DNA of 61,573 nt. Origin: a virus (taxonomy: Duplodnaviria; Caudoviricetes). The DNA lies in the IMG/VR virus record IMGVR_UViG_3300036791_000517, positions 1 to 61,573 of that record; one strand, given 5' to 3'. Below the pieces are notes generated by a model. That model was not told the DNA's origin. It saw only the letters and a list, made by a program, of their open reading frames with translations, and did no database searches. This document shows positions 6,131 through 40,210 of this stretch, piece by piece; the stretch's first letter is position 1, and every line of letters starts with the position of its first letter. Position numbers and translations under genes: made by a program.

Positions 6131-6135
6131 TGCCT

Positions 6136-6532: not shown

Positions 6533-6774
6533 GCGCTCCATCAGGCCGGGTCTACTCCGCTTACGATGTCGCCTACGAGCATCGTCCGGCCGAAAAACTC
6601 AAGCACGCCGAACGGGTCAAGGCCCATCGTCACATGGTTGCTCGCTACGGCAAAGCGGCATTGGCAGGCAAGGATGTCGATCATATCGTAGCGCTGCAAG
6701 GCGGCGGGTCGAACGCTCCGAGCAACTGGCGGCTGCGCTCGATCAGCGCCAACCGCGCTGATAAAACCTATTAG
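6529..6774 (+). CDS. HNH endonuclease
   Basis: DVDHIVALQGGGSN...NWRL...NR fits an HNH core. Confidence 0.85.
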   Translation: MSAPSGRVYSAYDVAYEHRPAEKLKHAERVKAHRHMVARYGKAALAGKDVDHIVALQGGGSNAPSNWRLRSISANRADKTY

Positions 6775-6783
6775 GAGTCAACC

Positions 6784-7065
6784 ATGGCAGACGACAATGT
6801 CATGTCGCTGGGTGCCGCTCGCGCAACGGCAGCGGGTGACAATCGTCTATGGTCGCCTGTGGAATGCCTTGAAGAAGCTGTTCGTGATGTGAAGTCCGGG
6901 CGTATCACTGCCGACAAGGTGGTTGTAATATTTCTGAACACTGGCACCGAGGACGATCCCGATTTCAACGTCGACTATTACGTTGCTAAAACCAAAGCGT
7001 CGCAGATCCTGGCCGCTCTGGAATGTGTTAAGTCTAAAATTCTGGCTGAGATGGGATACCCCTAG
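6784..7065 (+). CDS. Hypothetical protein
   Basis: AGGAG SD. Last gene of the rightward arm. Confidence 0.7.
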   Translation: MADDNVMSLGAARATAAGDNRLWSPVECLEEAVRDVKSGRITADKVVVIFLNTGTEDDPDFNVDYYVAKTKASQILAALECVKSKILAEMGYP

Positions 7066-7247
7066 CGGCCTTCAATGGCTGTCACCAGCTCCTCCTCATT
7101 CAGCAGATCGATCAGGCGATGCAGGAACACAACGTCGTCGCCCGTACATAGCTCATCGTCGCCAGTACGCACGATAGCCCAACGGATTGGAACATCGTCG
7201 CTGCGCCATCGACAGCGTTCGACGCGGTAGGGATAGTCGTAGGCCAT
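7062..7247 (-). CDS. Hypothetical protein
   Basis: AGGAG SD on the minus strand. Convergent 4-nt overlap with the previous gene. Confidence 0.6.
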   Translation of the reverse strand: MAYDYPYRVERCRWRSDDVPIRWAIVRTGDDELCTGDDVVFLHRLIDLLNEEELVTAIEGR

Positions 7248-7261
7248 GGTGTTCTCCTGTT

Positions 7262-15943: not shown

Positions 15944-16342
15944 TTACGATTTACGCGGTTTCACGTTCTTACTGGCGTAGACCAGCGCGGTCGCCGCCTT
16001 AACGGCGAACATGCAGGCCGTCTCGGCATGGGTGATGGCGACCGCCGAATGACGCGCCGCCTCATCGATTGCATGCCACACCGTGGAGGCTGGAACATCC
16101 TCCGGCATGCCGTCCTGCGGCAGCATCGGTTTCTTTTGGTCGCGCAATTTCTCGCAGGTCGTGATGAACGCGGCCGCCAGCAGATGAAGCTGACCGACTT
16201 GCATAAGCCTATCGGGGTTGAACCCGGCACGTACCTGACGCAGTGCAGTGTCGCTCACATCGACCATCAGATTGACCGTGCGTGACGCGGTCGGATCAGC
16301 GGCTTGCTGTTCCAGTTCTTCTTCCGTCAACATCGTTGGCAT
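15944..16342 (-). CDS. Acb2/Tad1-like helical hairpin protein (candidate nucleotide-signal sponge)
   Basis: VR.GFNP...V..L...AA.FI...R..AVAITHAETACMFAVKAATA, recognised by eye only. Confidence 0.55.
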   Translation of the reverse strand: MPTMLTEEELEQQAADPTASRTVNLMVDVSDTALRQVRAGFNPDRLMQVGQLHLLAAAFITTCEKLRDQKKPMLPQDGMPEDVPASTVWHAIDEAARHSAVAITHAETACMFAVKAATALVYASKNVKPRKS

Positions 16343-16366
16343 GTCATGTTCCTTTCGTTTCGACAT

Positions 16367-18833: not shown

Positions 18834-19038
18834 CGTGTCCCCCAGTAACATCATCCGTAAAATAATTGTGCAGCCACCATTGGAAGATGTGATTCTCATA
18901 ACGCTGACGGACAGGGTACCCGGCCTTGCGTAGCAGCGCGGCTATCTCATTCAAGGTCTCTGATGTCCATTCTTTACCGTCGAGCAGACTTTGAATGTTC
19001 GCAATCAGATCAGTCAGTTGATTCATTCGATCGATCAT
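18826..19038 (-). CDS. Hypothetical protein
   Basis: GGGAG SD, fits the tight gene chain. Confidence 0.55.
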   Translation of the reverse strand: MIDRMNQLTDLIANIQSLLDGKEWTSETLNEIAALLRKAGYPVRQRYENHIFQWWLHNYFTDDVTGGHDG

Positions 19039-19050
19039 AGTGATCTCCCT

Positions 19051-19242
19051 TCATGATGCTGGTACCGGGCGCCAAACGCTGATGATCTCTTCGTTACGAA
19101 CGCGCAGCGGCGCATCGCCGGTTGGCGTCGGGATCATCCCAATGACACCCCACGAATGCACTTCTTCTATGATCAGCAGCAGGCCATTGGCCCAATGCTC
19201 ACCAGTGTTAAGGCGAATAACGTCGCCGATCTGTGGCTTCAT
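19051..19242 (-). CDS. Small SH3/KOW-like hypothetical protein
   Basis: IGDVIRL...LLIIEEVHSWGV beta-barrel pattern. ATGA overlap. Confidence 0.6.
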   Translation of the reverse strand: MKPQIGDVIRLNTGEHWANGLLLIIEEVHSWGVIGMIPTPTGDAPLRVRNEEIISVWRPVPAS

Positions 19243-19631
19243 GGTCTGCCCTCGCGTCGCTTAACCTCTGGGGTTGGTGCCATCTGATTGATCTCCCCGA
19301 TGCTGAGCGGCTTGCGCCATTGGATTGAATGCCGCTCAAATTCTTTGATCAGCTTCTCGTTCGTGCCAAGCACGCGCGTGTAGTGATAGCAAAGCGTCTG
19401 CAGGTGACGCCGTGTCTTGCGGTCCCAACGGGACACTTCCACCAGTGGCTGAACCGCCAATGACAAATGCCATAGCGGCCGCCCTCCGGCGTAAACGGTT
19501 CATTCCATGCCGATGTTGACCGTCAGCACAGCGCTAACATCATGCTCCATGAACCAGCTGTGTCCGGTCAGTATATGCTTCTCCGGATCGAACACCGGGT
19601 GAGCCAGGGCGAAAATCGCTTGTTTGTGCAT
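19239..19631 (-). pseudogene. Gene interrupted by an in-frame TGA (pseudogene or readthrough)
   Basis: GAGGAG SD + ATG 19631. Reads MHKQ...NIGME-TGA(19502-19500)-TVYAGGRPLWHLSLAV..., in the same frame as the ORF ending at 19239. Confidence 0.55.
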
Positions 19632-19658
19632 TTTACTTTCTCCTCTCTTGACATGATG

Positions 19659-21020
19659 TCAACTTTGCTCGCTGCGTTTGACGACGTAGTCGTGGTGGAC
19701 CCAGCCGAGTGATGGATCACCCCGGACGTGCTCGTGGATCAGTCGCGAGTACGCCATGCACTTACCGCACAGGCGGTAACCTTCCTCGTAGTCGTAGGTC
19801 CAGTCATGCTCGTCGGGCCTGCACCAAGCCTTGGGCAGGTCAGGCATGTAGGTGCGCCAGTGCGAGCGCACCGGGTGAGCCTTGTGCTTGCGTGATGTAT
19901 TGCGCAGGTAACGCTCGATGTACGGCACCGGCTTGGTCTTAGGCAGGCGCAAGGTCACCCGATGATAGTCGAGCGCCTTCACCTTGCCCGTCAGTCCGGT
20001 GCGCACCTGATGCATGGGCTGGACATAGTTGGTCCTGACCGGCACCTCGTTCAGCATGGCCAGCACGGTGACGATCCAGCGCATCATGCCGGTGAACTCG
20101 GTGGTCTCGGTTATAATCAAGTCAGCGATTACATCACCGGCATTGCGTCGATCACCGACGATCGCCGCGATGATCCCGCGCATGCGTCCGGTGCCGAGAG
20201 CGCCATGACGCAGGAGATACTGCGGCAGGCGCAGGCTCTTCATGTCGTCGAGCGTGTCGATCACCGTGCTCTTGCCTTTCTCAGAGTAGCCCCACAGCGA
20301 CGCCGCACCGAGCGTTGCCATCACATGGCTATCGGCACGCTCAGGCAGCATCGGCACGCAGCCTTTATCTCTGCCCTCCGTCATGGTGAAGACATGCTCG
20401 CGGGTCGAGAAGAAATAGCAGATGGTCGTGCCGATCAAACCGTAGTTGCCGTGCGTCTCGCAGATCATCTCGATCACGGCCTCGGTGTCGCTCAGACGCC
20501 GGATCAAACAACCCAGCCGGTTGGCTACATCGTCATATTTGAACTTGCTGTCATCCATGTTGTGGAGGGCGCGCATGGTCCGCACTTTGGTCAGCAAGTC
20601 GAACTCGATCCACGTCGTCTCGTACGGCATGGTGGCGAACTGCACGCGGTAGAGCAGCTTCTCCGGCTTGCAGGTCGAGCTCACCTCGGTGGCGTAGCGC
20701 ACGAACTCGTTGTCGAGCACGAAGCGCTGCGCCTGACGCATGTCATGCCGGTAGGATTGTAGAAGCGGCTCGATCTTTTTCGCATCATGTGCCTTCAGCC
20801 AGAGCCGCTTAGGCAGCGTGTAGGTCGCGGCGACGAACTGGTCGGCCAGTGATGTCTCTTCTCGCAGTGCCTGCTCAGCCATTGCTTGGGCGCGCGGGTT
20901 GCCCGACAGCAACGCCTCGGCGAAATCCATGGCGGGCGACTTGCCGCCAGTCACGCTGGGTATCTCACCCGGCTGCCATTGAATAGTGCCTGACTTGATC
21001 GTCTTTGGTGGTTTAGACAT
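19659..21020 (-). CDS. Conserved hypothetical phage protein (HxVRxHWR / HVRGDP motifs)
   Basis: 453 aa with GAGGAGG SD. C-terminal HPVRSHWR...C..C...HVRGDPSLG. Confidence 0.85.
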   Translation of the reverse strand: MSKPPKTIKSGTIQWQPGEIPSVTGGKSPAMDFAEALLSGNPRAQAMAEQALREETSLADQFVAATYTLPKRLWLKAHDAKKIEPLLQSYRHDMRQAQRFVLDNEFVRYATEVSSTCKPEKLLYRVQFATMPYETTWIEFDLLTKVRTMRALHNMDDSKFKYDDVANRLGCLIRRLSDTEAVIEMICETHGNYGLIGTTICYFFSTREHVFTMTEGRDKGCVPMLPERADSHVMATLGAASLWGYSEKGKSTVIDTLDDMKSLRLPQYLLRHGALGTGRMRGIIAAIVGDRRNAGDVIADLIITETTEFTGMMRWIVTVLAMLNEVPVRTNYVQPMHQVRTGLTGKVKALDYHRVTLRLPKTKPVPYIERYLRNTSRKHKAHPVRSHWRTYMPDLPKAWCRPDEHDWTYDYEEGYRLCGKCMAYSRLIHEHVRGDPSLGWVHHDYVVKRSEQS

Positions 21021-21037
21021 GACTTCCTCCTCATGGA

Positions 21038-21066
21038 ATTATACTTCCCCCTTGACACCATGTCAA
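21038..21066 (-). promoter_or_regulatory. Perfect-consensus sigma70 promoter with family A palindrome as -35
   Basis: Minus strand TTGACA-TGGTGTCAAGGGGGAAG(17)-TATAAT upstream of gene 21020. Confidence 0.9.
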
Positions 21067-21080
21067 GAGGGAAGTCTCGG

Positions 21081-21170
21081 TTATTTCTTGCCGAACGTGC
21101 GGACCAACACCACGGCAAAGATCGTACAGCAGATGAGAAACAATGCGATCAGCCAGCACAGGCAGATCAT
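21081..21170 (-). CDS. 29-aa single-TM peptide
   Basis: MICLCWLIALFLICCTIFAVVLVRTFGKK. ATGA overlap with the upstream gene. Confidence 0.4.
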   Translation of the reverse strand: MICLCWLIALFLICCTIFAVVLVRTFGKK

Positions 21171-21472
21171 TTCTTGCCGTTTCTCATTTTCGCCCACACG
21201 CGCTGATAGCCGATGGCCCGTCCGGCTGCTTCGAGCGTGGCGTTCTGCGGTCGTCGGGTCTTACCCTCGAACCACTGCTTGACGGTACCGGCTGATGGCC
21301 CGCCTTGCTCTTCGACTTCCTTGTAATCGGCACGAGCAAGGTTACGTTTGCCGAAATGGTCCTGCATGATGGTGCGGATCGCGTCTATTGCAGGATCTTT
21401 ATTTACAAAAACGTACGCCTGATAAATTCTCATTGTACCTTTTGGCGTGCGCTCTGTTGGCCGTTTACTCAT
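21167..21472 (-). CDS. XRE/Cro-like helix-turn-helix protein
   Basis: YKEVEEQGGPSAGTVKQWFEGKTRRPQNATLEAAGRAIG. TAATG coupling. Confidence 0.75.
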   Translation of the reverse strand: MSKRPTERTPKGTMRIYQAYVFVNKDPAIDAIRTIMQDHFGKRNLARADYKEVEEQGGPSAGTVKQWFEGKTRRPQNATLEAAGRAIGYQRVWAKMRNGKK

Positions 21473-21879
21473 TATTTCCTCCATCGCACGCGGTTATTAG
21501 CTGCGATTTTTGCTTTCGCCTCTGCTGTATGTTTCAGCCCAATATGACCAGCTGATCTCACTGATCTCGCAACAGGATTGCGCTTGTACATATCGTTCAC
21601 GTTCATAGTCTGGGTTCCTTTGTAGAGATGTTTCGGATCGACGCACCATTCATGGTCACACGTATGCAATACGAGATCGCGCTTCATGCTTGCTGGTGTG
21701 CGAGGGATTGGCGCTATGTTAAGATGATAGGAAAGTCGTGACGGTTTCCACGGCTCGCCTTCATACATGATTTGCTTGCGACCTTTGGTGCACGGACCAG
21801 CCATTTTTCGATGGCCAATCTTTTTCTTAAAAATCGCAAGGCATTTGCCGACTCGAACAGTAGGCCGGGGAAACTTCAC
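21472..21879 (-). CDS. HNH homing endonuclease with NUMOD3-like tail
   Basis: VLHTCDHEWCVDPKHLYKGT..N..D and G.KHTAEAKAKI. Confidence 0.85.
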   Translation of the reverse strand: MKFPRPTVRVGKCLAIFKKKIGHRKMAGPCTKGRKQIMYEGEPWKPSRLSYHLNIAPIPRTPASMKRDLVLHTCDHEWCVDPKHLYKGTQTMNVNDMYKRNPVARSVRSAGHIGLKHTAEAKAKIAANNRVRWRK

Positions 21880-22262
21880 TTGGCATCCTTAGACGGCACC
21901 AGCCGCCACAGATTGCCTGGGCCACCGAGCACCTTTGGTCCTTTCTTGATCAGACCACGAGCGACTGCGTTGTTGATGTAGTGGCTATAACTCGTCTGAG
22001 CGAGACCGAGCTTGCCGATGATCTCGCGCGCCTGACCGCCGGTTATCTCAGTCAAATTGTGGTTGTGCATGTAATCGATCAACAACTCATGCGCCCGACC
22101 TGACTTGGGATGGCGCGGCTGGTTCGGTTGCTTCGGTTTCGTCCCGTTCAGCGGGTTAGTGCCTGCCACCGGCAGGACATTGAGATCGCGCGCCAAGCCT
22201 GCCAGAGCATGCATGACAGTCGCCAGGTTTTTGTCGTCCACTAGGAATTCGATGCGGAACAC
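21876..22262 (-). CDS. Putative winged-helix DNA-binding protein
   Basis: GLAQTSYSHYINNAVARGLIKK...G..WRL. AAGGAG SD. Confidence 0.55.
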   Translation of the reverse strand: MFRIEFLVDDKNLATVMHALAGLARDLNVLPVAGTNPLNGTKPKQPNQPRHPKSGRAHELLIDYMHNHNLTEITGGQAREIIGKLGLAQTSYSHYINNAVARGLIKKGPKVLGGPGNLWRLVPSKDAK

Positions 22263-22384
22263 GGTTATCTCCTTGGTTTGCGTTACAGGTCATTCATCGT
22301 CGAGCCAATACATCGCTGCCCTCACAATCACACAGAGCGCGATGAAGAACAGCAATGCATAGACATCTTGGTCATCCACGAATG

Positions 22385-23014
22385 TCAGCCTCCATAGTTA
22401 GAGAGAAGTTCCTTGTCGAACAACGCAATCGCCAGCTGGGTCGTTTCATCGACCATCCAGCTGAACGTTTTATAAGTTGGTTCGACCCAGTACGGCATGA
22501 GCCTGGCGCCACGCAGGTACTGCTCCATGCCAGGCGCCACATCCTCAAGATGATTGGCATCGAAACCGAGCCACCACAGGCCGTGCGGGCAGTCGTCGTG
22601 GCACAGCGTGTGCACACGAATCCATTCGGACCAGCCGACAAAGGTCGACGTGTCGCCCTTGCGATCCTCGCGCAAGTGCCGGGCCGAGTCGCCTTGCGGC
22701 CACACCAGACTCTCGGTCAGCCACTTCTCGCGGATCAAGCGGTAACGGATCCATTCATCCTCGGCCAACGGATGACAGTAGGCGGCGTAGGTCAGACCGC
22801 CATGCACGGTGACGTCGACCTCTTTGTAATCCTTGCCTGCCAGCGGATGGTTGGGGTTGAGCCCGACATAACCGCACCAGCTACCTATTGGACCACGCCG
22901 GATCGTGCAGCGTGCGCCAGTTGTTTCCTCGACCCAGATCGCCCGGTCGGGTTCGTCATCCCAGGGACCGCTCGGCCAACCCGCGCGGTCAACGATGTTG
23001 TCGAATGTATCCAT
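22385..23014 (-). CDS. Conserved phage protein (CGYV / VHGGLT / GFDxxH family)
   Basis: GSWCGYVG...HP...VHGGLTY...WWLGFDANH. Confidence 0.8.
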   Translation of the reverse strand: MDTFDNIVDRAGWPSGPWDDEPDRAIWVEETTGARCTIRRGPIGSWCGYVGLNPNHPLAGKDYKEVDVTVHGGLTYAAYCHPLAEDEWIRYRLIREKWLTESLVWPQGDSARHLREDRKGDTSTFVGWSEWIRVHTLCHDDCPHGLWWLGFDANHLEDVAPGMEQYLRGARLMPYWVEPTYKTFSWMVDETTQLAIALFDKELLSNYGG

Positions 23015-23532
23015 CAGTGTTCGGTTGGTTTATCGACCGCCATACGGCCGGTGATGAACGAATCCTTCGCCCTATTGTCGAGGATGTGTGGTGCAGCAAG
23101 CTTGCGGGTCTTGGGATCGATCAGGCAGATCGCCATGATCTGCTCGCTGCCGTGGATAACACTGAACATCACAGCTTCCTTGCGATCGGGATGTTCGGAA
23201 ATGCCTTCCTCTGCAGGACGACCTTTGGTGTAGTCATCGACACTTTTCCGGTCGTCACTTATCAGTGTCCAGATCTCGCTGATAAAAATGACACCAGCAA
23301 CGGCGTCGACATTTCTGGCCAGAGATTTCTGCAGACCGGCGACGACGTCTTTCGATTCGATCGAACCGAAATCAGCAACGCCCACTGGCATGACTTCACC
23401 GCCGTAACCACACACCAGCAGCATTGGCGAATGCTGATCGCCGGAACTGACAATCTTCTGCGCGCCGTCAATCAGCTTAGGCAGCAGCTTGTCCAGCCAT
23501 TTGCGGAAATCAAACCCTATTGGCTCATGCAT
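23014..23532 (-). CDS. Hypothetical protein
   Basis: AAGGAG SD fused to a family A palindrome. SEIW...HPDRKEAV. Confidence 0.75.
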   Translation of the reverse strand: MHEPIGFDFRKWLDKLLPKLIDGAQKIVSSGDQHSPMLLVCGYGGEVMPVGVADFGSIESKDVVAGLQKSLARNVDAVAGVIFISEIWTLISDDRKSVDDYTKGRPAEEGISEHPDRKEAVMFSVIHGSEQIMAICLIDPKTRKLAAPHILDNRAKDSFITGRMAVDKPTEH

Positions 23533-23599
23533 TTTAATCTCCTTGATATAATGTCAAGAGAAAAGTCCCCCGGCGACACCGCCGCCGGGGGTCGTCATG

Positions 23600-24103
23600 C
23601 TAATCCGCCTCGACTTCCTCGCGGAGTGGCGGCGTCTTCTCGGCCTCAACGATCGCCTTGTTGAGAACCTTCATGCCTGCAATGACCTTGCGCACGCCCT
23701 TGTCCTTGCGGACCTTGCGGTGCTTGGTCATCTGCACGCCACGCTCGATCCAACTGAGCTGGACCAAGCTGCCATCGGGCAGCTTGATGGCATCGGCGGC
23801 ATAGGGACCGTCCGACCATTTCACCAACGTGACCTTGAAGGTCTTGTTGTGCCACGCCAGCAGCTGCTTGCGAGGCACTCGACCGTTGTAGGGCTGGCCG
23901 ATCCAGTCCGTAGGACCGAAAATGTCACCCTTGCGAATGAATTGCAGGTTTTCAACCTGCATCTCGCTGCCCGAGCGGACGCAGCGGATGCTGCCATTCT
24001 CGTCGAGCAGGACAGCGTGGTGCTGATAGTCGCCGCGGGTCAGGACTTCCCCGACCCTAGCCTTTTCGATCTTTTGTCCAATGGACAAGCTATAGAGGCA
24101 CAT
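23600..24103 (-). CDS. MCxYS-type hypothetical protein, paralog 1
   Basis: MCLYSL...RCV...DAIKLPDGSLVQLSWIERG. Confidence 0.75.
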   Translation of the reverse strand: MCLYSLSIGQKIEKARVGEVLTRGDYQHHAVLLDENGSIRCVRSGSEMQVENLQFIRKGDIFGPTDWIGQPYNGRVPRKQLLAWHNKTFKVTLVKWSDGPYAADAIKLPDGSLVQLSWIERGVQMTKHRKVRKDKGVRKVIAGMKVLNKAIVEAEKTPPLREEVEAD

Positions 24104-24233
24104 GATAACTTTCTCCTTGACATGATGTTAACGCTCTACAGATCGGCCACGATTACGTGTCCGTACGCTACGCCACGCTACGCATCGGCCGCATAGATCC
24201 TTCGCAAATGCTCAGGATGACGATCACGGATCG

Positions 24234-24530
24234 TCAATCCATGCGGCAGATTTCCCAGGTGTTGTCGGGTTGCAGCACCATCACCCAGGCTGATGGGAAC
24301 AGCATGATGATCTCGTTGCGGAACATCATGATGCTCAGCGCCTTCATGGGTGGGTCGCCGGGATAGCTCAGGATCTCGGTATCAGGATCGAAGGTGAAGC
24401 CTTCGAACGGTTGCCATCCGGCGATGTAGCGCGCATTGAACTGCTCGCGCGCACCGCGCTCGTCGCTCTCGTCGAGAAAGCCGGGGATCAAACCCCAGTC
24501 TTCCGGATCGCCGCCGATCATGACAATCAT
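24234..24530 (-). CDS. Conserved hypothetical phage protein
   Basis: GLIPGFLDE.D...AREQFN..Y..GW...YPGDPP...RMD. Confidence 0.75.
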   Translation of the reverse strand: MIVMIGGDPEDWGLIPGFLDESDERGAREQFNARYIAGWQPFEGFTFDPDTEILSYPGDPPMKALSIMMFRNEIIMLFPSAWVMVLQPDNTWEICRMD

Positions 24531-24754
24531 CGGACATTCTCCCGACGTGCGGCGATGCCGAAATAGCGCAGGTGCTTGACCACAAGCGGCCCCTGATCGT
24601 CCGGCACCTCGAACTCCAAGTCGCGTAGCGGGTTACCGATCAGCAGTGTGCCAGAGGTCAGCACCTCGCCGTGACATTCCTTGATGATGCGTTGAACTTG
24701 AACATCGGTATCGTCACCGGCATGACCGGCAAACTTTATCGCGTATCGCAACAT
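24527..24754 (-). CDS. Hypothetical protein
   Basis: GGAGG SD inside family B palindrome 24758-24772. Confidence 0.6.
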   Translation of the reverse strand: MLRYAIKFAGHAGDDTDVQVQRIIKECHGEVLTSGTLLIGNPLRDLEFEVPDDQGPLVVKHLRYFGIAARRENVR

Positions 24755-24774
24755 GATTAACCTCCGGGGTTTTG

Positions 24775-24969
24775 CTAGCTCAGTTTTGTGTAGGCTTGCA
24801 CGATGCAAATCTTGTCATCCCAGCTTGTGCCATCGTGCTTGCCCTTGGTGTCGACGTTGACGTCAAACATGCTGCGAGTGAGCGAACTCACCTCGCCGAC
24901 GACGACGTCGAGGTCGCCGAAGCGCGCTTGCGTTTCCTGCAAGCGAATGATTAGGTTGCTGATTTTCAT
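24775..24969 (-). CDS. Small hypothetical protein (MKISxLIxxLQ type)
   Basis: MKISNLIIRLQETQARFGDLDV. AAGGA SD. Confidence 0.65.
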   Translation of the reverse strand: MKISNLIIRLQETQARFGDLDVVVGEVSSLTRSMFDVNVDTKGKHDGTSWDDKICIVQAYTKLS

Positions 24970-24981
24970 GGCTCAGTCCTT

Positions 24982-25200
24982 TCAGCCTGCCGTCTTGACG
25001 AACTTGCCATTCGATTGCTGGGTGTATTCCTGCCCGCGACCGGTGCCGAGACTGGCACGGGTCTGCTTGAAGCACCGCTCGCAGAGCGTTGCCCAATGAC
25101 CGTCACGCGTGACGCGTGCGTCGTACAGTTTGCCTTTGATTTGCGCGACGCAGTTGTTGCATCGTGTATCTCCCGTCCACATCTTAGCAATCGCTTTCAT
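24982..25200 (-). CDS. Small zinc-finger protein
   Basis: CNNC...YDA...G.WATLCERC...LGTGRGQ.Y. GGGAG SD. Confidence 0.7.
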   Translation of the reverse strand: MKAIAKMWTGDTRCNNCVAQIKGKLYDARVTRDGHWATLCERCFKQTRASLGTGRGQEYTQQSNGKFVKTAG

Positions 25201-25212
25201 ATCGCTCTCCCG

Positions 25213-25413
25213 TTAAGTGAGAAGTTTTACAACGTGGTACGCAAACAATACGATGTTGAGAAACAACACCGCATAACACAGCAGCACGACGCGCAGGCTG
25301 CCCAACCAGCCGCGCGGCGGTCGCAGATATGCCTCGATCATCAGACCGGCAGAGATCAGGTTGATTGCCGCCGATAGGCCCGTCGAACTGACCGGCAAAA
25401 CGGGCCAGTTCAT
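25213..25413 (-). CDS. Small membrane protein
   Basis: MNWPVL... with two hydrophobic stretches. Start uncertain. Confidence 0.45.
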   Translation of the reverse strand: MNWPVLPVSSTGLSAAINLISAGLMIEAYLRPPRGWLGSLRVVLLCYAVLFLNIVLFAYHVVKLLT

Positions 25414-25544
25414 CGGTGCCTTCTGATTTTGCGACGCCATCGGCGATAGATCACCCACGCGCTCCACCACGGCAGCACGAGGAGGGTGGCGATTGCCGTG
25501 GCGACGAGGGTTGCCGTCCATAGCAGGATGTTTTTCATCACAGG

Positions 25545-25772
25545 TCACGCCGGTTTGTCGGCGTTGCGCAGCTCCTTGTAGTGCGCCAGTTTGCGCTGAT
25601 GAAGCGCCAGCTGCGCGGCCGCGACAGCGTTCGCCAGTTCGACCATGATGCGCTGCTCGGGTGAGCCGACCGCAAACCGCAAGACGAGCCTGCTGGCACG
25701 CAGGCCGAGATGGTGCATCTCGCTCGACGCTCCGCGGTAGTATTTGACAACGGCTTTGCTGATATCATCCAT
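25545..25772 (-). CDS. Hypothetical protein
   Basis: AGGAG SD. Confidence 0.6.
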   Translation of the reverse strand: MDDISKAVVKYYRGASSEMHHLGLRASRLVLRFAVGSPEQRIMVELANAVAAAQLALHQRKLAHYKELRNADKPA

Positions 25773-25781
25773 GTCGTTCTC

Positions 25782-26060
25782 CTAGCGGCATTCCCACTGG
25801 TCCTTGGCCTTGCCCTCGGCCGTGGTTTGCCATTGCATGTTGGTTACGCTGTCGGGCCCGCCCTTGCAGAGCGGGATGATGTGGTCGCGGACATAGCCCG
25901 GGCACGGACCCGTCGACCGGTCGGCCGACGGGCAGGGATGAAGCTGCTGAAACAGCAGCGCGACGTTGCGGTCGCGGGCTTCGACCCACTGGGTCCGGCC
26001 ATCCTCACAGAGGGTGACCGAACACAGCAGGACGATGACGATGGCAATGAGCCAGCGCAT
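25782..26060 (-). CDS. HNH-fold protein with N-terminal signal peptide
   Basis: MRWLIAIVIVLLCS followed by PCPS...CPGYVRDHIIPLCKGGPDSVTNMQWQT...KD. Confidence 0.75.
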   Translation of the reverse strand: MRWLIAIVIVLLCSVTLCEDGRTQWVEARDRNVALLFQQLHPCPSADRSTGPCPGYVRDHIIPLCKGGPDSVTNMQWQTTAEGKAKDQWECR

Positions 26061-26257
26061 CATTTGAGATCAGTTTGTTGGAGCGCGAACTCGACCATCT
26101 GGCGGACGGTCGCGTCGAATGATCTGATCTCCTGACGCAACCCGACGATCTGCCGCACAAGCTCGATCATGATGCGATCGGTGATGTCGGGCTCGGTCAG
26201 TTGATCGTGAGTGTCAAGCTTGTCGATGCGTTTGAGTTCGTTGTCCAAGTCAGCCAT
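26060..26257 (-). CDS. Hypothetical protein
   Basis: AGGAG SD downstream of family A site 26279. Confidence 0.65.
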   Translation of the reverse strand: MADLDNELKRIDKLDTHDQLTEPDITDRIMIELVRQIVGLRQEIRSFDATVRQMVEFALQQTDLK

Positions 26258-26292
26258 GGCAGTTCTCCTGTTTCTCTCTTGACATAATGTCA

Positions 26293-26428
26293 GGGGAAAC
26301 GGGGAAGCCCTAACGTCATCCGCCGAGGATCATCGGCATAGACGGCTACTTGAGCTCCCCCATCCCCCGGCCAGCGGGAGAGATTGCTGGCCGGTTCTGC
26401 CGGAGATGTAGGTTCAGTCCGGCAGAAG
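26293..26428 (-). ncRNA. Putative structured RNA leader, copy 1 of AGCCGUC/GAUGACGUU motif plus two hairpins
   Basis: Three consecutive stems in an intergenic region. The core is shared with 27006-27070. Confidence 0.45.
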
Positions 26429-26437
26429 CTGCTTAGT

Positions 26438-26968
26438 TTAGACGATCACGAGACGACGGCGTGCCGTCTCGGGCTGTGACGTGCCCGGCTGCGGCTCCTC
26501 GACCGGCTCCGGAGGTGTCGGGGCCGGTTCCTTGACCGGCTCGGGCACCGGCATCGGCGTCGGCTCGGTGGCGATGCCTTCCTCGATTGCCATCGCGACC
26601 TTGTTCATGCCCGGCAGACCGGTGATCACCGGCATGCCGAGACGGACACGAGTGCCTGCCATGAGCCACGACAGGTGGGCACGCTGGCCATCAGGGAAGG
26701 TGATCACCTCGTGATGGAGGCGAACCTTGAGGTTGGTCGCTCCGTTCCAGCGCTGGACCAGAGGGCCGCTGCGCACCCAGCGATGGTCGACCGTCACCTT
26801 GTCGATGACGATCTCCACCTGCGGTCGACGGATGCAGACCAAGCGGTCGTCGACCGACGGATCGGCCGGGTAGAGCCCCTTGAGCGAGTAGTTGGGGATC
26901 TGCCTGACGACCAGATCCTCGTGCGCGGTTGCCAGTCGATGGGCAACATAGATTGAACCTTCACACAT
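26438..26968 (-). CDS. MCxxS-type hypothetical protein, paralog 2
   Basis: MCEGSI...LVCI...HHEVITFPDGQRAHLSWLMAG with a Pro/Glu tail. GAGG SD. Confidence 0.75.
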   Translation of the reverse strand: MCEGSIYVAHRLATAHEDLVVRQIPNYSLKGLYPADPSVDDRLVCIRRPQVEIVIDKVTVDHRWVRSGPLVQRWNGATNLKVRLHHEVITFPDGQRAHLSWLMAGTRVRLGMPVITGLPGMNKVAMAIEEGIATEPTPMPVPEPVKEPAPTPPEPVEEPQPGTSQPETARRRLVIV

Positions 26969-27005
26969 GATGTTTACCTCTTGACATGATGTTAAGCGAC
27001 ATGAC

Positions 27006-27070
27006 GGCAAACCGTGTCGAACGTCATCACGGATGTCATCCCGTTGGACGGCTGATAGACACGGCTTGCC
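27006..27070 (-). ncRNA. Putative structured RNA, copy 2 of AGCCGUC/GAUGACGUU motif
   Basis: 13-bp outer stem GGCAAGCCGUGUC/GACACGGUUUGCC enclosing the conserved core. Confidence 0.45.
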
Positions 27071-27107
27071 ACGACCTGCCGTCGTCTTTCTTACGGCAGG
27101 AAGTCTC

Positions 27108-27935
27108 TCACGCTACCTCGTCGACCGGATCGTCTTTGGTCGGCACGGACGTGGTGATTTTAGGTTTCTTACTTGACTTGGCCTTGGTGGTGTCCGGCTT
27201 GGCTGCTTTCAGTTTCTTCTTGCCTTTGGGCGGCTGCGGCTGCGCCCGCATCTTGGTGGTGCCGCCCAAGGTGGCGACGCGCTGTTCTAGAAGCTCGCAG
27301 GCCTCGTAGACGTCGTGGTAGTTGTGACCCTCGTTGAACTTGATCAGCAGGGCCCGCAAGCTCCACAGCCGGTTGGCCAGCGTCTCGTCCGACTGCTTGC
27401 GTTTGTGCGGCTCCTTGCCCTGCATAGCGCGCTTGATCTGGGGCTCGCTCAGTTCTTTGGTCGGGGCGTCGTTCTGGGCCCGGGCGAATGCCAGATAAAG
27501 CTCCCACGCCCGGCCCTTGATCTTGCCGTCGGCACGCCAGCCCTTCATATGCTCGCGCGCCGTGTTGAGCATGGCCGGGCCGTCGATCGCCGGGTTGCGG
27601 CCGAGCACGATGAAGTGCTTGAGCTCGCTGGCGCGCTGCTTGAACTGCTGGGTGTTGCCGTAGTCCTCGTCGCCATAGTCGCCCATCTCCTCGCCCGAGC
27701 CGCCCGAGATCTCGCCCCACGCCCGGGTATTGTCGGCCGGTTCGAGCAAGCCCTCCTTGGCTTTCTGGCAAACATACTCGGCCGCCTTCATGCGCGCCGT
27801 CTTGCCCTTGCCCTCGGTGCGGCCAAGCTCGCGCAGATGGGCAAAGATGGCATCGCGTTCGGGATTGGTGTTTGATCCAGGCGTCGGCTGGTCGGTGGTG
27901 CTGTTTGACACGATGTCAACTTTAGGTTCGCTCAT
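27108..27935 (-). CDS. Hypothetical early protein
   Basis: 275 aa, AGGAG SD, Lys-rich tail. Confidence 0.8.
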   Translation of the reverse strand: MSEPKVDIVSNSTTDQPTPGSNTNPERDAIFAHLRELGRTEGKGKTARMKAAEYVCQKAKEGLLEPADNTRAWGEISGGSGEEMGDYGDEDYGNTQQFKQRASELKHFIVLGRNPAIDGPAMLNTAREHMKGWRADGKIKGRAWELYLAFARAQNDAPTKELSEPQIKRAMQGKEPHKRKQSDETLANRLWSLRALLIKFNEGHNYHDVYEACELLEQRVATLGGTTKMRAQPQPPKGKKKLKAAKPDTTKAKSSKKPKITTSVPTKDDPVDEVA

Positions 27936-28048
27936 GGTTCACTCCTGTTGTGGCTCGCGACGGTACAGGTCATTTTTGGTCCGGCCCGCGAGCCAGCAGC
28001 CAGACACGACTGAACCCCGCACGCCCATGATGGGGTGCGGGGTCTTTG

Positions 28049-28249
28049 TCATCTCCTCATGCCTATACCCATGTTGCGGGCGTTGCGGTCGGCACGGCGT
28101 GCCGCGCTTGACACGCTGTCCAGCTCACGGTGCAGCCATACGATCTCGTCGATCAGCAGCAGCACCGTGCGCCTGAGGTTCTCGGTGGTCGGGCCATCCT
28201 TCTCGATGATGCGCACCATCGATTGGAGCGGTCGGATATCGCGTGGCAT
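28049..28249 (-). CDS. Hypothetical protein
   Basis: TGATG coupling, GGAGG SD. Confidence 0.6.
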   Translation of the reverse strand: MPRDIRPLQSMVRIIEKDGPTTENLRRTVLLLIDEIVWLHRELDSVSSAARRADRNARNMGIGMRR

Positions 28250-28461
28250 CAGTGCACCTCCGTGTCGTCGACCTCACCCTTGAGCCGCCAACGAATGCGC
28301 AGGCGTTCGTCGATCGGCGCGTCGAACAGGCTGACCAGCGCCGCCTCGATGGTCGGCTGCACCATCCCGGCAAGGCTGTTGCCGGGCCGGATGACGTTGG
28401 TGATGTCGTGCGCGTCCAACGGCGTCTCGAAACAGACGCCGATCACCAGGTGCATCTTCAT
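28249..28461 (-). CDS. Hypothetical protein
   Basis: ATGA coupling. Confidence 0.6.
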   Translation of the reverse strand: MKMHLVIGVCFETPLDAHDITNVIRPGNSLAGMVQPTIEAALVSLFDAPIDERLRIRWRLKGEVDDTEVH

Positions 28462-28824
28462 GCGTCACCTTCGACCTTGCCGTTGGCCAGCGGCAGACGG
28501 TGAGCATCGCGCAGCCGCTGCACGTCGGGGTCGATCCTTCGGCTGGGCTCAGGACAGGTGATCTTGATGCGGGCTAGCGGCTGGTTGGTTACAACGAGCT
28601 GCTCACGCTTGCGGTAACGCTCGTGCAAGGCACGCTCGCGGCGCTTGCGCTCGCGCGCATCGGCAAAGGCCGCCGCTTCGAGGATGGAGCGCACCTCGAC
28701 CAGATCGTCGTGCGCCGCACGATGCAGGGCACGGCCAACCCACCATGACAGGGGGATGCCGCGCAGTTCGGCCGCGCGCACCATTGATGGGCTGACGGTT
28801 ACTCGTATGTTCTTTCTTGACATG
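28458..28824 (-). CDS. Basic hypothetical protein (possible ribbon-helix-helix N-terminus)
   Basis: MSRKNIRVTVSPSMVRAAELRGIPLSWWVGRAL. AAGGA SD, with the start inside a family A palindrome. Confidence 0.55.
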
Positions 28825-28992
28825 ATGTTAATCCTTTCTATTGACAGGCAGTGGGCTGGCCGTACTTGCCGGGGCTGCCCCGGCATAGATCGGCATCGTC
28901 AGCGATGGTGCCGCCGGGAGTGCTAAAAGCCAACCACATAAGAGCAGCCGTGATGATTGCTGCCCAGATCGTCCAACGGATTTCCTCGGCCA

Positions 28993-29199
28993 TCACAGCA
29001 CCCGCACGACAACACCGTCCTTGACCTCGCAGCGGGCATACCACTTGTGGGGCGACGGATAGTGCGGACCCTCGACGTAGATGGTGCCATCGCTTGGTGT
29101 CGTGCCAATACCGGCCGGTTGATAGTAGGTCACCCGCTCGCCAGCCTTGACGGCAACGACGAGATCCTTCTTCGATTTGAAATCACGCGTGGTGTACAT
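28993..29199 (-). CDS. Small conserved hypothetical protein
   Basis: MYTTRDFKSKK.L..AV...EGPHYP.PH.WYA...VKDG. AGGAG SD. Confidence 0.65.
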   Translation of the reverse strand: MYTTRDFKSKKDLVVAVKAGERVTYYQPAGIGTTPSDGTIYVEGPHYPSPHKWYARCEVKDGVVVRVL

Positions 29200-29234
29200 C
29201 GATCGTCTCCTGTGGTTGTAGTGTTGATATGATG

Positions 29235-29447
29235 TCAACGTGCCGTTGTGTTGCCCCTGTTGAGCGTGCTGGTCGGACTGAGCTTCAGCTTGAGCTTGGC
29301 GAGCTCGCCGTCGATGCGGTCGACCGCCTCGGCAAGATTGAGCAGACCATCCTGCCAGGCGGCAACGTGCATCCTGATGTCGGCCATGATCGACAGTGTG
29401 GATGACGCGGCAGGTTTGTGCTTGGTGGTGTCTGATGGGTTTTTCAT
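29235..29447 (-). CDS. Hypothetical protein, first gene after promoter 29525
   Basis: AAGGAG SD + ATG (MKNPSD...). Confidence 0.55.
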   Translation of the reverse strand: MKNPSDTTKHKPAASSTLSIMADIRMHVAAWQDGLLNLAEAVDRIDGELAKLKLKLSPTSTLNRGNTTAR

Positions 29448-29496
29448 TTGACAGTCTCCTTCACTTAACGAGATTGCTGCTCTTTCGATGGTGAGC

Positions 29497-29525
29497 AGCT
29501 TACCATTTTCCTGACATAATGTCAA
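29497..29525 (-). promoter_or_regulatory. Sigma70-type promoter with family A palindrome as -35 and family B site just upstream
   Basis: TTGACA-17 nt-TAAGCT with extended TG. TAACTCCCGGGGTTA at 29538-29552. Confidence 0.7.
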
Positions 29526-29687
29526 GAGGAAAGTTCTTAACTCCCGGGGTTACGCGTAGTTTCTTTTAGTAACCACAATGATCGTGTGGTCTTTACGGCA
29601 AGGTTAAGTCCAGCAGAAAGTTTTGTCTGGACGTATTAGATGTGCAACGAGCGGCTATCGTGCCTGCGACGCGCGCAACAGGTCACA

Positions 29688-29933
29688 TCAGCACCGCTTC
29701 CATACGATATCGCTACCGGCAGGCAAGTGCGTTTTCGGCGTGGGGATTACTTCGTATCCCAGCCGGTCGATCTCTTCCTCGGCGTAACCACGCGAAGGAA
29801 AAGAGCGGCGTAGCCACGCAATGTCGCCGGTTGGCGTACAGATGAAAATGTACCAGCGACCGTAACGACGACGGCAGGTTGCGTAAGCTTGCGGCGTATA
29901 CGGCCTTCCGGGGACGTAAGTCATGCGCACCAT
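29688..29933 (-). CDS. Hypothetical protein
   Basis: 81-aa ORF with AAAGG immediately upstream. Confidence 0.4.
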   Translation of the reverse strand: MVRMTYVPGRPYTPQAYATCRRRYGRWYIFICTPTGDIAWLRRSFPSRGYAEEEIDRLGYEVIPTPKTHLPAGSDIVWKRC

Positions 29934-29939
29934 CCTTTG

Positions 29940-30400
29940 TTAGAGAACACACCAAAACCATGTGGTGCGTATAAATTAGCAAATTGTTGAACAATTTCAT
30001 AAGGTTATTATTTTCCATTTGAACACCTACTCGGGCAGAAATATGTCGCAACCACAAAATTTAACCGACTTTCCATTAAACACGGCCCGTACCTATCATC
30101 ATGCAACTCACTTTTTATGTGCTAGACAGTAGGTGTTAGAAAGTAGGTGTATTGGTGTATACGAAATTACCATTAAACCCCAATAAGCTCTAAGTGCCTG
30201 ATATAATGTGACTATTAGACTCTCACAATATAACTGAATAAGCACCTAGGTGTGAGTATACGCACCAGAACAATACACCCACTAACACACCCACTGTTGG
30301 TTTTGCCCGGTGTGTTGCCCGTTTTGCCGTCTTTTATGTACAAAAGAAACTTTTCATTAAACGTACATTAGAAACATTCTAATGTACACCGGTTTGGCCA
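29940..30400. other. AT-rich non-coding region (candidate origin or packaging/terminus region)
   Basis: Sharp drop in GC, repeated AGGTGT/ACACC elements, no convincing ORF. Confidence 0.5.
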
Positions 30401-30452
30401 TTGACACGATGTCAAGTCGTAACCCCTGGGGTTAAGGCTTACCTCTGTACAT

Positions 30453-30608
30453 TGCCCTCGACGCGCCGCCCGCTGCCATCCGTGCCCTCGACGCGCATTA
30501 CACGTCACATTTGCCGCGGCCGCGACGCGCGGACACGACGAAACCCCGCGCTCGCGCGCGGGGTGGAGGCGGACACGACGAAACCCCGCAGCGCAAGCTG
30601 CGGGGTTC
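30453..30608. repeat. Paired direct repeats and terminator-like hairpins
   Basis: tgccctcgacgcgc x2 (30453, 30483). gcggacacgacgaaaccccgc x2 (30529, 30569), each opening a GC hairpin. Confidence 0.7.
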
Positions 30609-30648
30609 GCACCAACGTGACAGGGATTTCTCTGTGCCACGTAGCTTC

Positions 30649-31392
30649 CTAGTTAGTCGGCTGGGTTGGCGTGCCGTTGCTCGCGGCGAGCTTCGCCTTC
30701 AACAACGCGATTTCATCGGCGCGTGACAGTCCGGTGGATGCGGCCGACACATCGCACGACTCCTTCAACGCCTTGACCGCATCTTGCACGGCCATCAATG
30801 CTAGCCGCTGGCGCGGGTTCGCATTGGCCTGGGCCATCGCGAGCGGGTCGTTCTTCTCGATCCGCTTGTCACTGACAACGCCTTCCCAACGCGTGGCCAG
30901 CGACTTGAGCGGGTTGTCGTCGGTCTTTGGCGTGGGCGTCAGGATGGCAGCCCATTCCTCCGCTGTCGGCTCCTTCTCTTTGTGCTCTTCCATTAGCTTG
31001 CGCAGTTTGGCGCCGCGCGAGTTGAACGGCCCTTTCGTCTTCTCGATCACGTCATCCGCGTATTGCGTCATATCGTAGGCCTTCCAGAAGCCCGCCTCAA
31101 TGAACGCGCCGAACCCGGAAATCCATGACTTGATCGATGATTCGGCCAGCGGATCGCGATGGCCGTTTGATGCGTCACGAAACGCAGTGTTGAACGCAGT
31201 GAAAAGTTTCGCGCCATCCGGCATGGCGTTCGCCTTCGCCTCCTTCGCCCGAAACCCGCACGCATAGCTGAATGTGGCGAAACGCGTGAAGACCGCCACA
31301 TCCGTGAGATTGCCGCTGCCGATTTCCATGGCCATTTTGACCATATCGGCTTCAGTCTTCAACGCCTTCGCAGTGTAGTTGCTGATATCCAT
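30649..31392 (-). CDS. Hypothetical early protein
   Basis: 247 aa, AAAGGAG SD, two perfect family A sites upstream (31415, 31490). Confidence 0.8.
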   Translation of the reverse strand: MDISNYTAKALKTEADMVKMAMEIGSGNLTDVAVFTRFATFSYACGFRAKEAKANAMPDGAKLFTAFNTAFRDASNGHRDPLAESSIKSWISGFGAFIEAGFWKAYDMTQYADDVIEKTKGPFNSRGAKLRKLMEEHKEKEPTAEEWAAILTPTPKTDDNPLKSLATRWEGVVSDKRIEKNDPLAMAQANANPRQRLALMAVQDAVKALKESCDVSAASTGLSRADEIALLKAKLAASNGTPTQPTN

Positions 31393-31604
31393 GATTACGT
31401 CTCCTTTGGTTGGCTTGACATCGTGTCAAGAGGGAAGCTTTCCCTACCCTATGTCAAACGTAATCGGATGCAAAATGGGAAGTGTTCTGTTGACACGATG
31501 TCAAGCGGCCCGAAGCCACGGGCCAGATGGACAGGGGTGGGGGGCCACGCCGGGCGTTTTAGGGGCTTCAAAAATCTGCGTCCCCCAAAATCAAATCTTC
31601 CCTC

Positions 31605-31633
31605 TTGACAAACCCCCGAGGTTAAGCTATATT
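31605..31633 (+). promoter_or_regulatory. Sigma70 promoter with family B palindrome in the spacer
   Basis: TTGACA-17 nt-TATATT. AAACCCCCGAGGTTA at 31610-31624. Confidence 0.85.
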
Positions 31634-31672
31634 GTCTCATGAAGCTTTGGCAACAGACACAAGGAGCGCATA

Positions 31673-32146
31673 GTGGCGTACGACATCCAGCTCAAGTCAG
31701 ACCCTTCTCCGCTGCCGATCAAACCGGCGGTGCTGATCCTCATCCACAAGCGCAAGAAAAAAGTTTACGTCGCCTACACCACCAATGCGCGGGGCCGCGC
31801 CGCCGTGCTCGCCTCGATGATCCGTCATCGCGCGGTGACCGAGCGCCAGCATCTGCGCGATCTGCCCGAGGGCGACGTCAAGGACTTCGTCGTGCTGGCC
31901 AGCCGCATCGATCTTGCGCCGCGTGACGCCGACCGGGCGGTGCGGCGCATTCAGAATGGTTTGCTGCGCGACGGCTACACGTTGTTCGGCGGGCCGCGTT
32001 CGGCCTTGCCGCTGGTCGTCCTCAATGGTCGCCGGATGTCGATTACCCAGGCTATGGCCGAGGCCAAGACCAAGGCCGGTTACCAGACCGTCTATCGCCG
32101 CATCAAGCGCGGCTGGCCGGTCCGTCAGGCGCTCGACTTAGACTAA
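31673..32146 (+). CDS. Putative DNA-binding regulator (degenerate GIY-YIG-like N-terminus, HTH-like C-terminus)
   Basis: KVYVAYTTN..R and SITQA......GYQTVYRRIKRGW...QAL. AAGGAG SD + GTG. Confidence 0.7.
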   Translation: MAYDIQLKSDPSPLPIKPAVLILIHKRKKKVYVAYTTNARGRAAVLASMIRHRAVTERQHLRDLPEGDVKDFVVLASRIDLAPRDADRAVRRIQNGLLRDGYTLFGGPRSALPLVVLNGRRMSITQAMAEAKTKAGYQTVYRRIKRGWPVRQALDLD

Positions 32147-40146: not shown

Positions 40147-40210
40147 CCTTTGAAGCTCGGGGCGGCCTTGACATAGTGTCAGGGTCGCCACTTCTTCACG
40201 GAGTTTCTAG

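Follow-up and report, generated by a model that had tools for sequence, protein, structure and literature searches.

Conserved phage RNA structures with covarying stems are rare entry points into message control and host manipulation. An earlier note on the phage genome analysed here pointed to two hairpins within one stretch of minus-strand DNA that have unlike stems around a common core, and proposed that they represent an undescribed structured RNA. This locus raises the question of whether the pair belongs to a wider family, whether its structure is maintained at the level of RNA and what such a structure might do for the phages that carry it.

The window, by which we mean the whole 61,573-bp stretch of DNA that was analysed, is a complete phage genome with direct terminal repeats according to its IMG/VR record, with a G+C content of about 60%. 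For replication it encodes a family-A DNA polymerase, helicases and a primase/helicase-like protein, and for packaging and structure a large terminase subunit, a portal, a capsid and tail fibres; the gene of a giant protein spans the contig ends. The single sequencing run containing this phage is labelled soil metagenome. The only cultured relatives found are the Rhizobium phages RHph_TM27A/B, TM29 and TM3_14A, with 67% identity in the capsid of all four and 26% identity in the primase/helicase-like protein. Consensus TTGACA-N16/17-TATAAT promoters occur in these phages and no RNA polymerase gene was detected among the phage proteins scanned, so that transcription apparently relies on the host RNA polymerase.

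Two hairpins in one early operon

Both hairpins lie on the minus strand within a block of small early genes, and their sequences read exactly as the earlier note had written them (Table 1). The small genes around them carry no Pfam or PHROG annotation, protein searches with the 275-aa and 176-aa neighbours retrieved no relatives, and a blastn comparison of the 3-kb region around the copies with named phages gave no match. A strong terminator-like site is present at 23591-23567, 2.7 kb downstream in the window.

Table 1. Features of the window around the two hairpin copies, in the order of transcription
Feature	Position	Strand	Remarks
275-aa gene	27108..27935	-	Upstream of copy 2; no Pfam or PHROG match
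Simple G+C-rich hairpin CCUGCCGU...ACGGCAGG	27075..27100	-	Past the stop codon of the 275-aa gene, ahead of copy 2
Copy 2 of the hairpin element	27006..27070	-	Model R2 69.9 bits, E 1.7e-14; model core 27010-27066
'Family A' near-palindrome TTAACATC-ATGTCAAGAG	26978..26995	-	Past copy 2; then SD and ATG at 26968
176-aa gene	26438..26968	-	Lies between the two copies; no Pfam or PHROG match
Two simple G+C-rich hairpins, UUCUGCCGGA...UCCGGCAGAA and CCGGCCAGC...GCUGGCCGG	26367..26427	-	Past the stop codon of the 176-aa gene, ahead of copy 1
Copy 1 of the hairpin element	26301..26361	-	Model R2 61.7 bits, E 1.7e-12; model core 26302-26360
'Family A' near-palindrome CTGACATT-ATGTCAAGAG	26276..26293	-	Past copy 1; then SD and ATG at 26257
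65-aa gene	26060..26257	-	Start 44 nt past copy 1; no Pfam or PHROG match

The two copies are situated about 700 nt apart in one operon and have the core in common, while both stems differ in sequence. In copy 2, a 13-bp outer stem is followed by UAUC, by AGCC and by the pairs GUC/GAC, above which come a CA(A)/GAU loop and the apical hairpin ACGGG-AUGACA-UCCGU. Copy 1 spans 26301-26360, with one further pair possible at 26361, and consists of an outer stem of 9-10 bp, an AAG bulge, UAGC(C)/GUUA, GUC/GAC, a UA(U)/GAU loop and the apical hairpin UGCCGA-UGAUCC-UCGGCG. Each copy is predicted to fold into a three-tier hairpin, with minimum free energies of -35.9 and -32.8 kcal/mol and z scores of -3.9 and -3.1. 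The complementary strands attain -23.7 and -29.8 kcal/mol and are thereby 3-12 kcal/mol weaker, in agreement with the earlier proposal that the G-U pairs favour the transcribed strand.

The pattern AGCCGTC-N10-30-GATGACGTT matches the window twice, both times on the minus strand and with a spacing of 18-20 nt, and none of 100 dinucleotide shuffles of the genome contained even one match. A scan of the whole 61,573-bp genome with the covariance model R2, filters off, likewise returned only the two copies, the next best score being 15.7 bits.

The earlier note had further described each copy as preceded by another hairpin and directly followed by a 'family A' site and an SD. This layout holds for both window copies; the coupling to 'family A' does not recur elsewhere in the family described below. 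The 'family A' site adjoins the element without being one of its constant parts.

Homologs and consensus structure of the element

Searches with patterns and covariance models revealed 15 copies of the element, representing 13 distinct sequences, in 13 IMG/VR phage records. The copies score 42.7-76.2 bits, are 57-90 nt long and number one or two per genome; in record G091 two copies stand in tandem, 64 nt apart. A first core pattern matched at least 119 stretches of IMG/VR. Apart from the window, none of the matches listed formed the stems; the best outer stem arising by chance had 8 bp. With a refined pattern the number of stretches fell to 25, two of them real (G002 and G003) and 23 due to chance. 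The covariance model R1, built from four sequences, found copies in G001 and G006 in which the inner helix is CCGC/GCGG instead of CGUC/GACG, the model R2 found a copy in G089, and a pattern derived from the resulting consensus identified eight additional copies in IMG/VR. The covariance-model search of phage genomes that the earlier note had suggested thus extends the pair to a family.

In total, the covariance models were run on 110 viral records and 156 bacterial genomes, and the element proved to be sparse. On 80 capsid-related records R1 retrieved one real copy (G006) and one weak partial match, and on 26 records R2 retrieved a match in G089 only. R2 also found no copy in the 10 relatives examined from the window's clade, all of them complete or nearly so, and the Rhizobium phage TM27A has none at E<=1. 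Since the element is absent from most relatives, it is dispensable. The consensus pattern, applied to one genome per species of 185,579 bacterial and archaeal species, gave 52 matches, none of them real by R2 (best score 20.8 bits). With the top candidates scored by R2, the element was not found in five whole bacterial genomes, nor in 151 genomes sampled from the class to which G096 belongs, a MAG labelled Alphaproteobacteria. On metagenome contigs a pattern of the same kind as the refined one matched at least 120 stretches; among the matches listed none was real, and the best outer stem had 7 bp.

The consensus is a single hairpin built in successive tiers. From the base, a freely varying G+C-rich outer stem of 9 bp or more is followed by a 3-nt 5′ bulge (NAG), by an invariant stack of U-A, A-U, G.U and C-G with one bulged C, and by a further three pairs, with covariation at two of them (GU/AC versus CG/CG). 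Above these pairs, a 3x3 internal loop, in which A on the 5′ strand and AU on the 3′ strand are invariant, leads to a variable apical hairpin, whose loop is semi-conserved as GAUNAC-like or AGAWAGA. The internal loop is UAA/GAU in nine of the 13 distinct copies; the deviants are the UAU/GAU and CAA/GAU of the window and, in two others, CAA/AAU and UAC/CAU. In all 13 distinct sequences the 5′ part keeps AGCC, the last C of the inner helix and the middle A of the 5′ loop strand, and the 3′ part keeps AUG, GUU and the G with which the outer stem's 3′ arm starts. Nearly invariant are AG in the NAG bulge, the U preceding AGC and the loop UAA/GAU. The roughly 13 invariant nucleotides of the element lie in the bulge, the G.U-containing stack and the 3x3 loop. 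The invariance of the core is partly owed to how the copies were found: most of them came from patterns or models that require the core, an ascertainment bias that makes part of the invariance only apparent.

The pairing itself is documented in two ways. In alignment A8, which was fitted to the covariance model and therefore favours the structure, 93.5% of the pair cells hold standard pairs against 69% in shuffles, and 12 of the 17 pairs are altered on both sides. None of 500 shuffles of this alignment attains any of five measures, and sliding the 3′ partners by 1-3 columns lowers the pairing to 37-50%. Independently, RNAalifold applied to the 15 homologs recovers a 9-bp outer stem, in which eight pairs have changed on both sides, together with an inner helix of 7 bp composed of U-A, A-U, G.U, C-G, the bulged C, two covarying pairs and C-G. 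The compensatory stem changes across homologs bear out the claim that the stems differ yet keep pairing around a conserved core. Of the pairing scheme first proposed, the three tiers stand; in place of the open loop drawn between AGC and UU, RNAalifold predicts that AGC pairs with GUU and leaves one C bulged. Judged by these patterns of substitution, the structure is apparently under selection.

Several of the G.U pairs become A/C mismatches on the opposite strand, and in all five pairs folded it is the sense strand that gives the more stable structure. The better folding of the sense strand and the orientation of the copies along their flanking genes argue for RNA rather than duplex DNA as the form in which the element acts.

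Some finer structural readings were tried and set aside. A kink-turn or C/D-box reading of GAUGA would require sheared pairs that leave C/C and U/C, and it is the Watson-Crick register that covaries. A pseudoknot joining the apical loop to the 3′ flank is possible in copy 2 only and is not conserved. Likenesses to 4.5S RNA, to loop E of 5S and to domain V of group II introns were dropped because no Rfam model supports them.

Comparison of the whole window with all 4227 models of Rfam 15 yielded no match at the gathering score. At E<=10, seven weak matches fall in the region 26200-27200 (best 18.9 bits against a threshold of 51), and none covers the conserved core; the mir-9209 model spans copy 2 at 15.2 bits against a threshold of 90. 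The Rfam search proposed at the outset accordingly identifies no family over the core, and the earlier failure to recognise hammerhead, twister or pistol is matched by the lack of any hit to their Rfam models. The families left unmatched presumably also include twister-sister, hatchet and HDV-like ribozymes as well as Y RNA, SRP, 5S and group II intron RNAs. A full-text literature search for the core strings returned unrelated primer matches only. We are thus highly confident that the element represents a genuine, uncatalogued and strand-specific family of structured RNA hairpins, with covarying stems, as the earlier note had anticipated for the pair; it is new to the catalogues in that it has no Rfam entry and its core strings are unmatched in the literature searched.

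Placement in phage genomes and candidate roles

Every one of the 15 copies lies between genes, reads in the direction of its flanking genes and stands 9-73 nt past a stop codon; together they represent about seven independent placements. Window copy 2 and the copy of G003 follow the 275-aa gene, the two tandem copies of G091 precede a homolog of that gene, window copy 1 follows the 176-aa gene, and the copy of G002 is found elsewhere in the early region, with a palindrome upstream of it. At the capsid junction of G001, G006 and three fragments, the element lies 9-10 nt past the major-capsid stop codon and 23-26 nt before the tail-fibre start codon. In G089 and G092 it is downstream of an AAA_24 ATPase gene and before a 119-aa gene with weak DUF3846 similarity, and in G093 and G094 it precedes the genes of an acidic protein and the small terminase subunit. 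The element is patchily distributed, and even close relatives carry it at non-orthologous positions.

The element also crosses lineage boundaries, since neither the capsid nor the polymerase of the window phage has a detectable counterpart in G089, G092 or G093. Among these three, only G093 has a similar portal (23% identity), and G089 shares a few genes at 45-77% identity, the 77% being that of window positions 4269-5429. The presence of the element in phage lineages without shared core genes points to a common host factor or to an intrinsic activity of the RNA. A phage-encoded partner was sought by co-occurrence and rejected: by tblastn no protein of the window phage (G000) is common to all element carriers, which suggests a host rather than a phage partner. 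Linkage to the 93-aa gene at 25782-26063 was rejected as well; this gene is common to G003, G089 and G092 but lies 4-14 kb from the element there.

The immediate surroundings of the element suggest a boundary. A second G+C-rich hairpin stands within a few nucleotides before the element in five of the seven placements, and further hairpins follow it in G003 and G093. In each of the 14 relatives examined, some G+C-rich hairpin occupies the same short post-capsid spacer, with a U-tract in G020 and G064; the element therefore seems to fill a slot normally held by a terminator-like or stabiliser-like hairpin. The two copies of G091 are interleaved with three other hairpins and end 33 nt before a consensus sigma-70 promoter (TTGACA-N16-TATAAT, 12/12), so that there the element belongs to the end of the upstream unit and cannot be a 5′ leader for the gene that follows. 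In G089, G092 and the capsid-junction copies, an SD occurs within 8-25 nt past the element and the next start codon 22-26 nt past it, which leaves no space for a promoter; transcription must pass through the element there. The 3′ flanks of the 13 copies have no consistent U-tract past the outer stem, and classical intrinsic termination is accordingly unsupported; a consensus scan of 19000-32000 for terminator-like sites listed neither window copy.

Two regulatory readings were rejected on the same evidence of placement. A stimulator of readthrough or frameshifting at the capsid junction is at odds with an in-frame UAG inside the element and with the other copies lying 17-73 nt from the stop codon. 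A riboswitch does not suit the long and stable outer stem, nor downstream genes as unrelated as those for small unknown proteins, a tail fibre, a weakly DUF3846-like protein and an acidic protein before the small terminase subunit.

Taken together, the post-capsid slot, the arrangement in G091, the passage of transcription and the missing U-tract suggest that the element marks a boundary, where it would shape or protect a 3′ end, or be cut, short of acting as a full terminator. We tentatively favour, as a possibility that falls short of an even chance, a cis-acting 3′-end, processing or stability module read by an RNase III-type host factor. Such an element would act on polycistronic phage mRNA at gene or transcription-unit boundaries, where a host factor, most plausibly a double-strand-specific endoribonuclease of the RNase III type, would recognise its irregular helix of roughly two turns. 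The bulge and loops would restrict the cut, and after cleavage the upstream message would keep a protective hairpin and be parted from the downstream gene, which would be read through or served by its own promoter. The conserved core might then be the determinant of recognition or of resistance to cleavage. According to the portions of PMC1540722 used here, substrates of E. coli RNase III are about two helical turns long, internal loops and bulges confine cleavage to one strand, the 3′ hairpins left behind protect against 3′-5′ exonucleases, and a bulge-helix-bulge motif can permit binding yet block cleavage. The same portions describe no positive sequence determinant as known for the E. coli enzyme, and RNase III alone thus does not explain some 13 invariant nucleotides in unrelated phages.

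The apparent use of host RNA polymerase, with no need of a phage protein common to all carriers, would suit an RNA that controls transcription and is read by RNA polymerase or an elongation factor, be it a put-like antiterminator or a factor-dependent attenuator or terminator without a U-tract. We consider this unlikely. The adjacent second hairpin in five of seven placements recalls the two-stem put RNAs of HK022, but R2, run with filters off on the whole HK022 genome, found nothing similar (best 10.5 bits, E 3.5). Relatives do carry terminator-like hairpins at the post-capsid position, the element does lie just upstream of a strong promoter in G091, and the window does have its strong terminator-like site downstream; however, the U-tract is absent, a full terminator is incompatible with copies that stand so close before the next start codon, and an antiterminator makes little sense before a promoter or past a capsid gene, where relatives attenuate. 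Invariant nucleotides in bulges and loops between covarying helices are, in turn, a typical signature of small ribozymes and protein-binding RNAs, and would fit an autonomous RNA released from the transcript, either a small self-cleaving ribozyme or a decoy or sponge for a host protein (a defence nuclease, for example, or a regulator that binds RNA). The semi-conserved apical loops, the sporadic occurrence in phages of unrelated gene content, like that of an accessory or counter-defence trait, and the fit of the 3x3 loop in nine of 13 distinct copies to UAA/GAN, described in the consulted part of PMC2615604 as a tertiary- or ligand-contact motif, agree with this idea. We nevertheless judge it distinctly unlikely, given that no Rfam 15 ribozyme or sRNA model matches even at E<=10, that the element is a single unbranched rod without an obvious docking partner for a catalytic core, that no promoter-terminator pair marks it as a separate gene and that each genome has only one or two copies.

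Patchy, non-orthologous placement, the tandem copies of G091 and the few nearly identical genes shared by otherwise unrelated carriers, such as window 4269-5429 in G089, could also be the trace of a DNA element that folds as a single strand, whether a MITE/REP-like mobile hairpin or an attC-type recombination site that shuffles cassettes between phages. Against mobility of the former kind, copies within the window and within G091 share the core only and differ in both stems, unlike recently transposed repeats, which would be alike over their full length; there are one or two per genome rather than many in any orientation, and all 15 are in the sense direction. The base-proximal triplet, the extrahelical base, the variable tip and the position 3′ of ORFs recall attC sites, in which the inverse core and the core (…AAC / GTT…) form the outermost stem and an integron integrase is encoded nearby. 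In the element, by contrast, the conserved triplet sits mid-hairpin, where GUU pairs with AGC above a variable stem of at least 9 bp, and Pfam identified no integrase, transposase or other recombinase among the 36 window proteins scanned. The A/C mismatches and poorer folding of the antisense strand, and the lack of any real copy among the 52 bacterial and archaeal pattern matches or in the 156 genomes scanned with R2, further make a DNA-level role highly improbable. Only a small chance is given to a self-sufficient RNA that works without a phage protein, as a boundary-cutting ribozyme or a put-like reprogrammer of the polymerase, and that is traded horizontally among unrelated soil phages. 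The probability left over from the RNase III-type module and its three rivals belongs to something else.

Whichever reading applies, the element is small and sharply defined, and a transcript of about 60 nt makes direct testing possible. A processing or stability module might provide a compact gene-insulating part for high-GC bacteria, and a catalytic or RNA polymerase-binding element would be a new mechanism class.

Comparison with known systems

Group II intron domain V has an invariant AGC that pairs as A-U, G.U and C-G at the base of its helix, with a bulge above. The element has a similar AGC stack but lacks the 34-nt hairpin with a 2-nt 3′ bulge and GNRA loop, neither a reverse transcriptase nor other intron domains accompany it, and at E<=10 neither the group II intron model nor any other Rfam family covers the core in 26200-27200. 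The resemblance is regarded as chance. PeSL cassettes of T4-type phages are small early genes framed by a stem-loop and a promoter-like site, and like the element they frame small early genes where gene order varies between relatives. PeSL stem-loops, however, are plain, without a conserved irregular core, whereas the element is found in late regions too and extends to other phage lineages.

The put RNAs of HK022 are cis-acting antiterminators that occur in two copies per genome, of differing sequence and shared fold; each consists of two adjacent stem-loops on the nascent transcript and needs no phage protein. The window element resembles them in its two copies of unlike sequence and same fold and in its frequently adjacent stem-loops and, provided that it acts at all, in needing no phage protein to do so. 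A put-like layout was compared with the placements: a hairpin precedes the element in five of seven, the G091 copies are upstream of a promoter, and in five records the element is post-capsid. These positions (in one operon, post-capsid, pre-promoter) do not readily fit a put-like site, which would be expected downstream of an early promoter and upstream of terminators. Nor does the element resemble an intrinsic terminator, as no consistent U-tract follows its hairpin.

At the level of a submotif, the 3x3 loop is similar to the UAA/GAN internal loop (UA_handle family), which the consulted part of PMC2615604 describes as 5′-UAA-3′ opposite 5′-GAN-3′, flanked by Watson-Crick helices and engaged in tertiary or ligand contacts. 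The match is exact in nine of the 13 distinct copies, and the four deviants include both window copies. UAA/GAN is a structural submotif rather than a functional family, and its likeness to the element is drawn from sequence.

A parallel in shape and position is offered by the RNase III sites of T7 (R0.3, R0.5, R1, R1.1, R1.3). Like these sites, the element is an intergenic hairpin on polycistronic phage mRNA, about two helical turns long, broken by bulges or internal loops and located tens of nucleotides before the next start codon. By the features named in the portions of PMC1540722 used here, it has the shape of a T7-type site, an irregular hairpin of about two turns with a bulge or loop, between cistrons. 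R2, run with filters off on T7 nt 1-9000, gave no match at E<=5. Three T7 intergenic regions that we folded have in common a core of their own, AGGUC...GUGGCCU; we take these regions to be R1, R1.1 and R1.3. The T7 sites thus illustrate that a phage can keep a hairpin family with a common core; they are paralogs within one lineage, whereas the core of the present element is kept across phages of unrelated gene content.

The family A palindrome and a second hairpin family

The site termed family A, a near-palindrome found 3′ of both copies in this genome of the covarying intergenic RNA hairpin (the element), is a 15-bp palindrome, TTGACAY-N-ATGTCAA, usually with GAG directly 3′ of it. In one perfect promoter the left half of the palindrome forms the -35 box, and the divergent region 31400-31640 contains a cluster of several family A sites. 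In both this phage and G002, another viral record that carries the element, the palindrome 3′ of the capsid gene is contained in a longer hairpin. The family A site looks like either an operator overlapping promoters or a separate hairpin family.

A second conserved hairpin family, in which GUUACC and GGGUAAC flank a short loop and tip variable G+C stems, occurs in the intergenic spacers of relatives. One such hairpin lies immediately 3′ of the tandem element copies on L443, a stretch of the element-bearing record G091.

Locations of features in the window and in related viral records
Feature	Location	Remark
Family A sites	window 21038-21066 (-); further 13902, 19645, 23551, 24114, 26276, 26978, 28814, 29519, 30409, 31412-31611, 40150-40190	
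Promoter TTGACA-N17-TATAAT	window 21066-21038 (-)	perfect
GUUACC/GGGUAAC hairpins	G020, G030, G091; L443 14309-14327 (G091)	3′ of capsid gene in G020, G030, G091
SNase-like gene	L443 12842-13360 (G091)	0.7 kb upstream of tandem element copies
Genes common to window and G089	window 4269-5429 (+), 5460-6089 (+), 25782-26063 (-)	58-77% protein identity
Giant ORF	window 54231-61571 (+), resuming 3-1631 (+)	leaves contig end, re-enters at start
140-aa protein	window 15944-16366 (-)	Pfam Acb2/Tad1 hairpin domain

Genes of element-bearing phages

Three window genes have counterparts in G089, a 77.6-kb phage in which no similarity to the window's capsid, portal or polymerase was detectable; the 93-aa product of the third also has a 68% identical counterpart in G092. 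These shared genes are evidence of recent gene exchange among lineages carrying the element. The staphylococcal-nuclease-like (SNase) gene was seen near the G091 copies and near none of the remaining ones.

Giant and putative anti-defence genes

Joined through the terminal repeat, the two parts of the giant ORF would encode a product of ~2,990 aa. Its first 2,447 aa have no match in Pfam or PHROG, and its final 542 aa match giant-protein PHROGs, one of them labelled DarB-like antirestriction. The 140-aa protein scores 30 bits against a Pfam cut-off of 27, and its gene is likely an anti-defence gene because Acb2/Tad1 is a phage sponge family tied to counter-defence against cyclic-nucleotide signalling.
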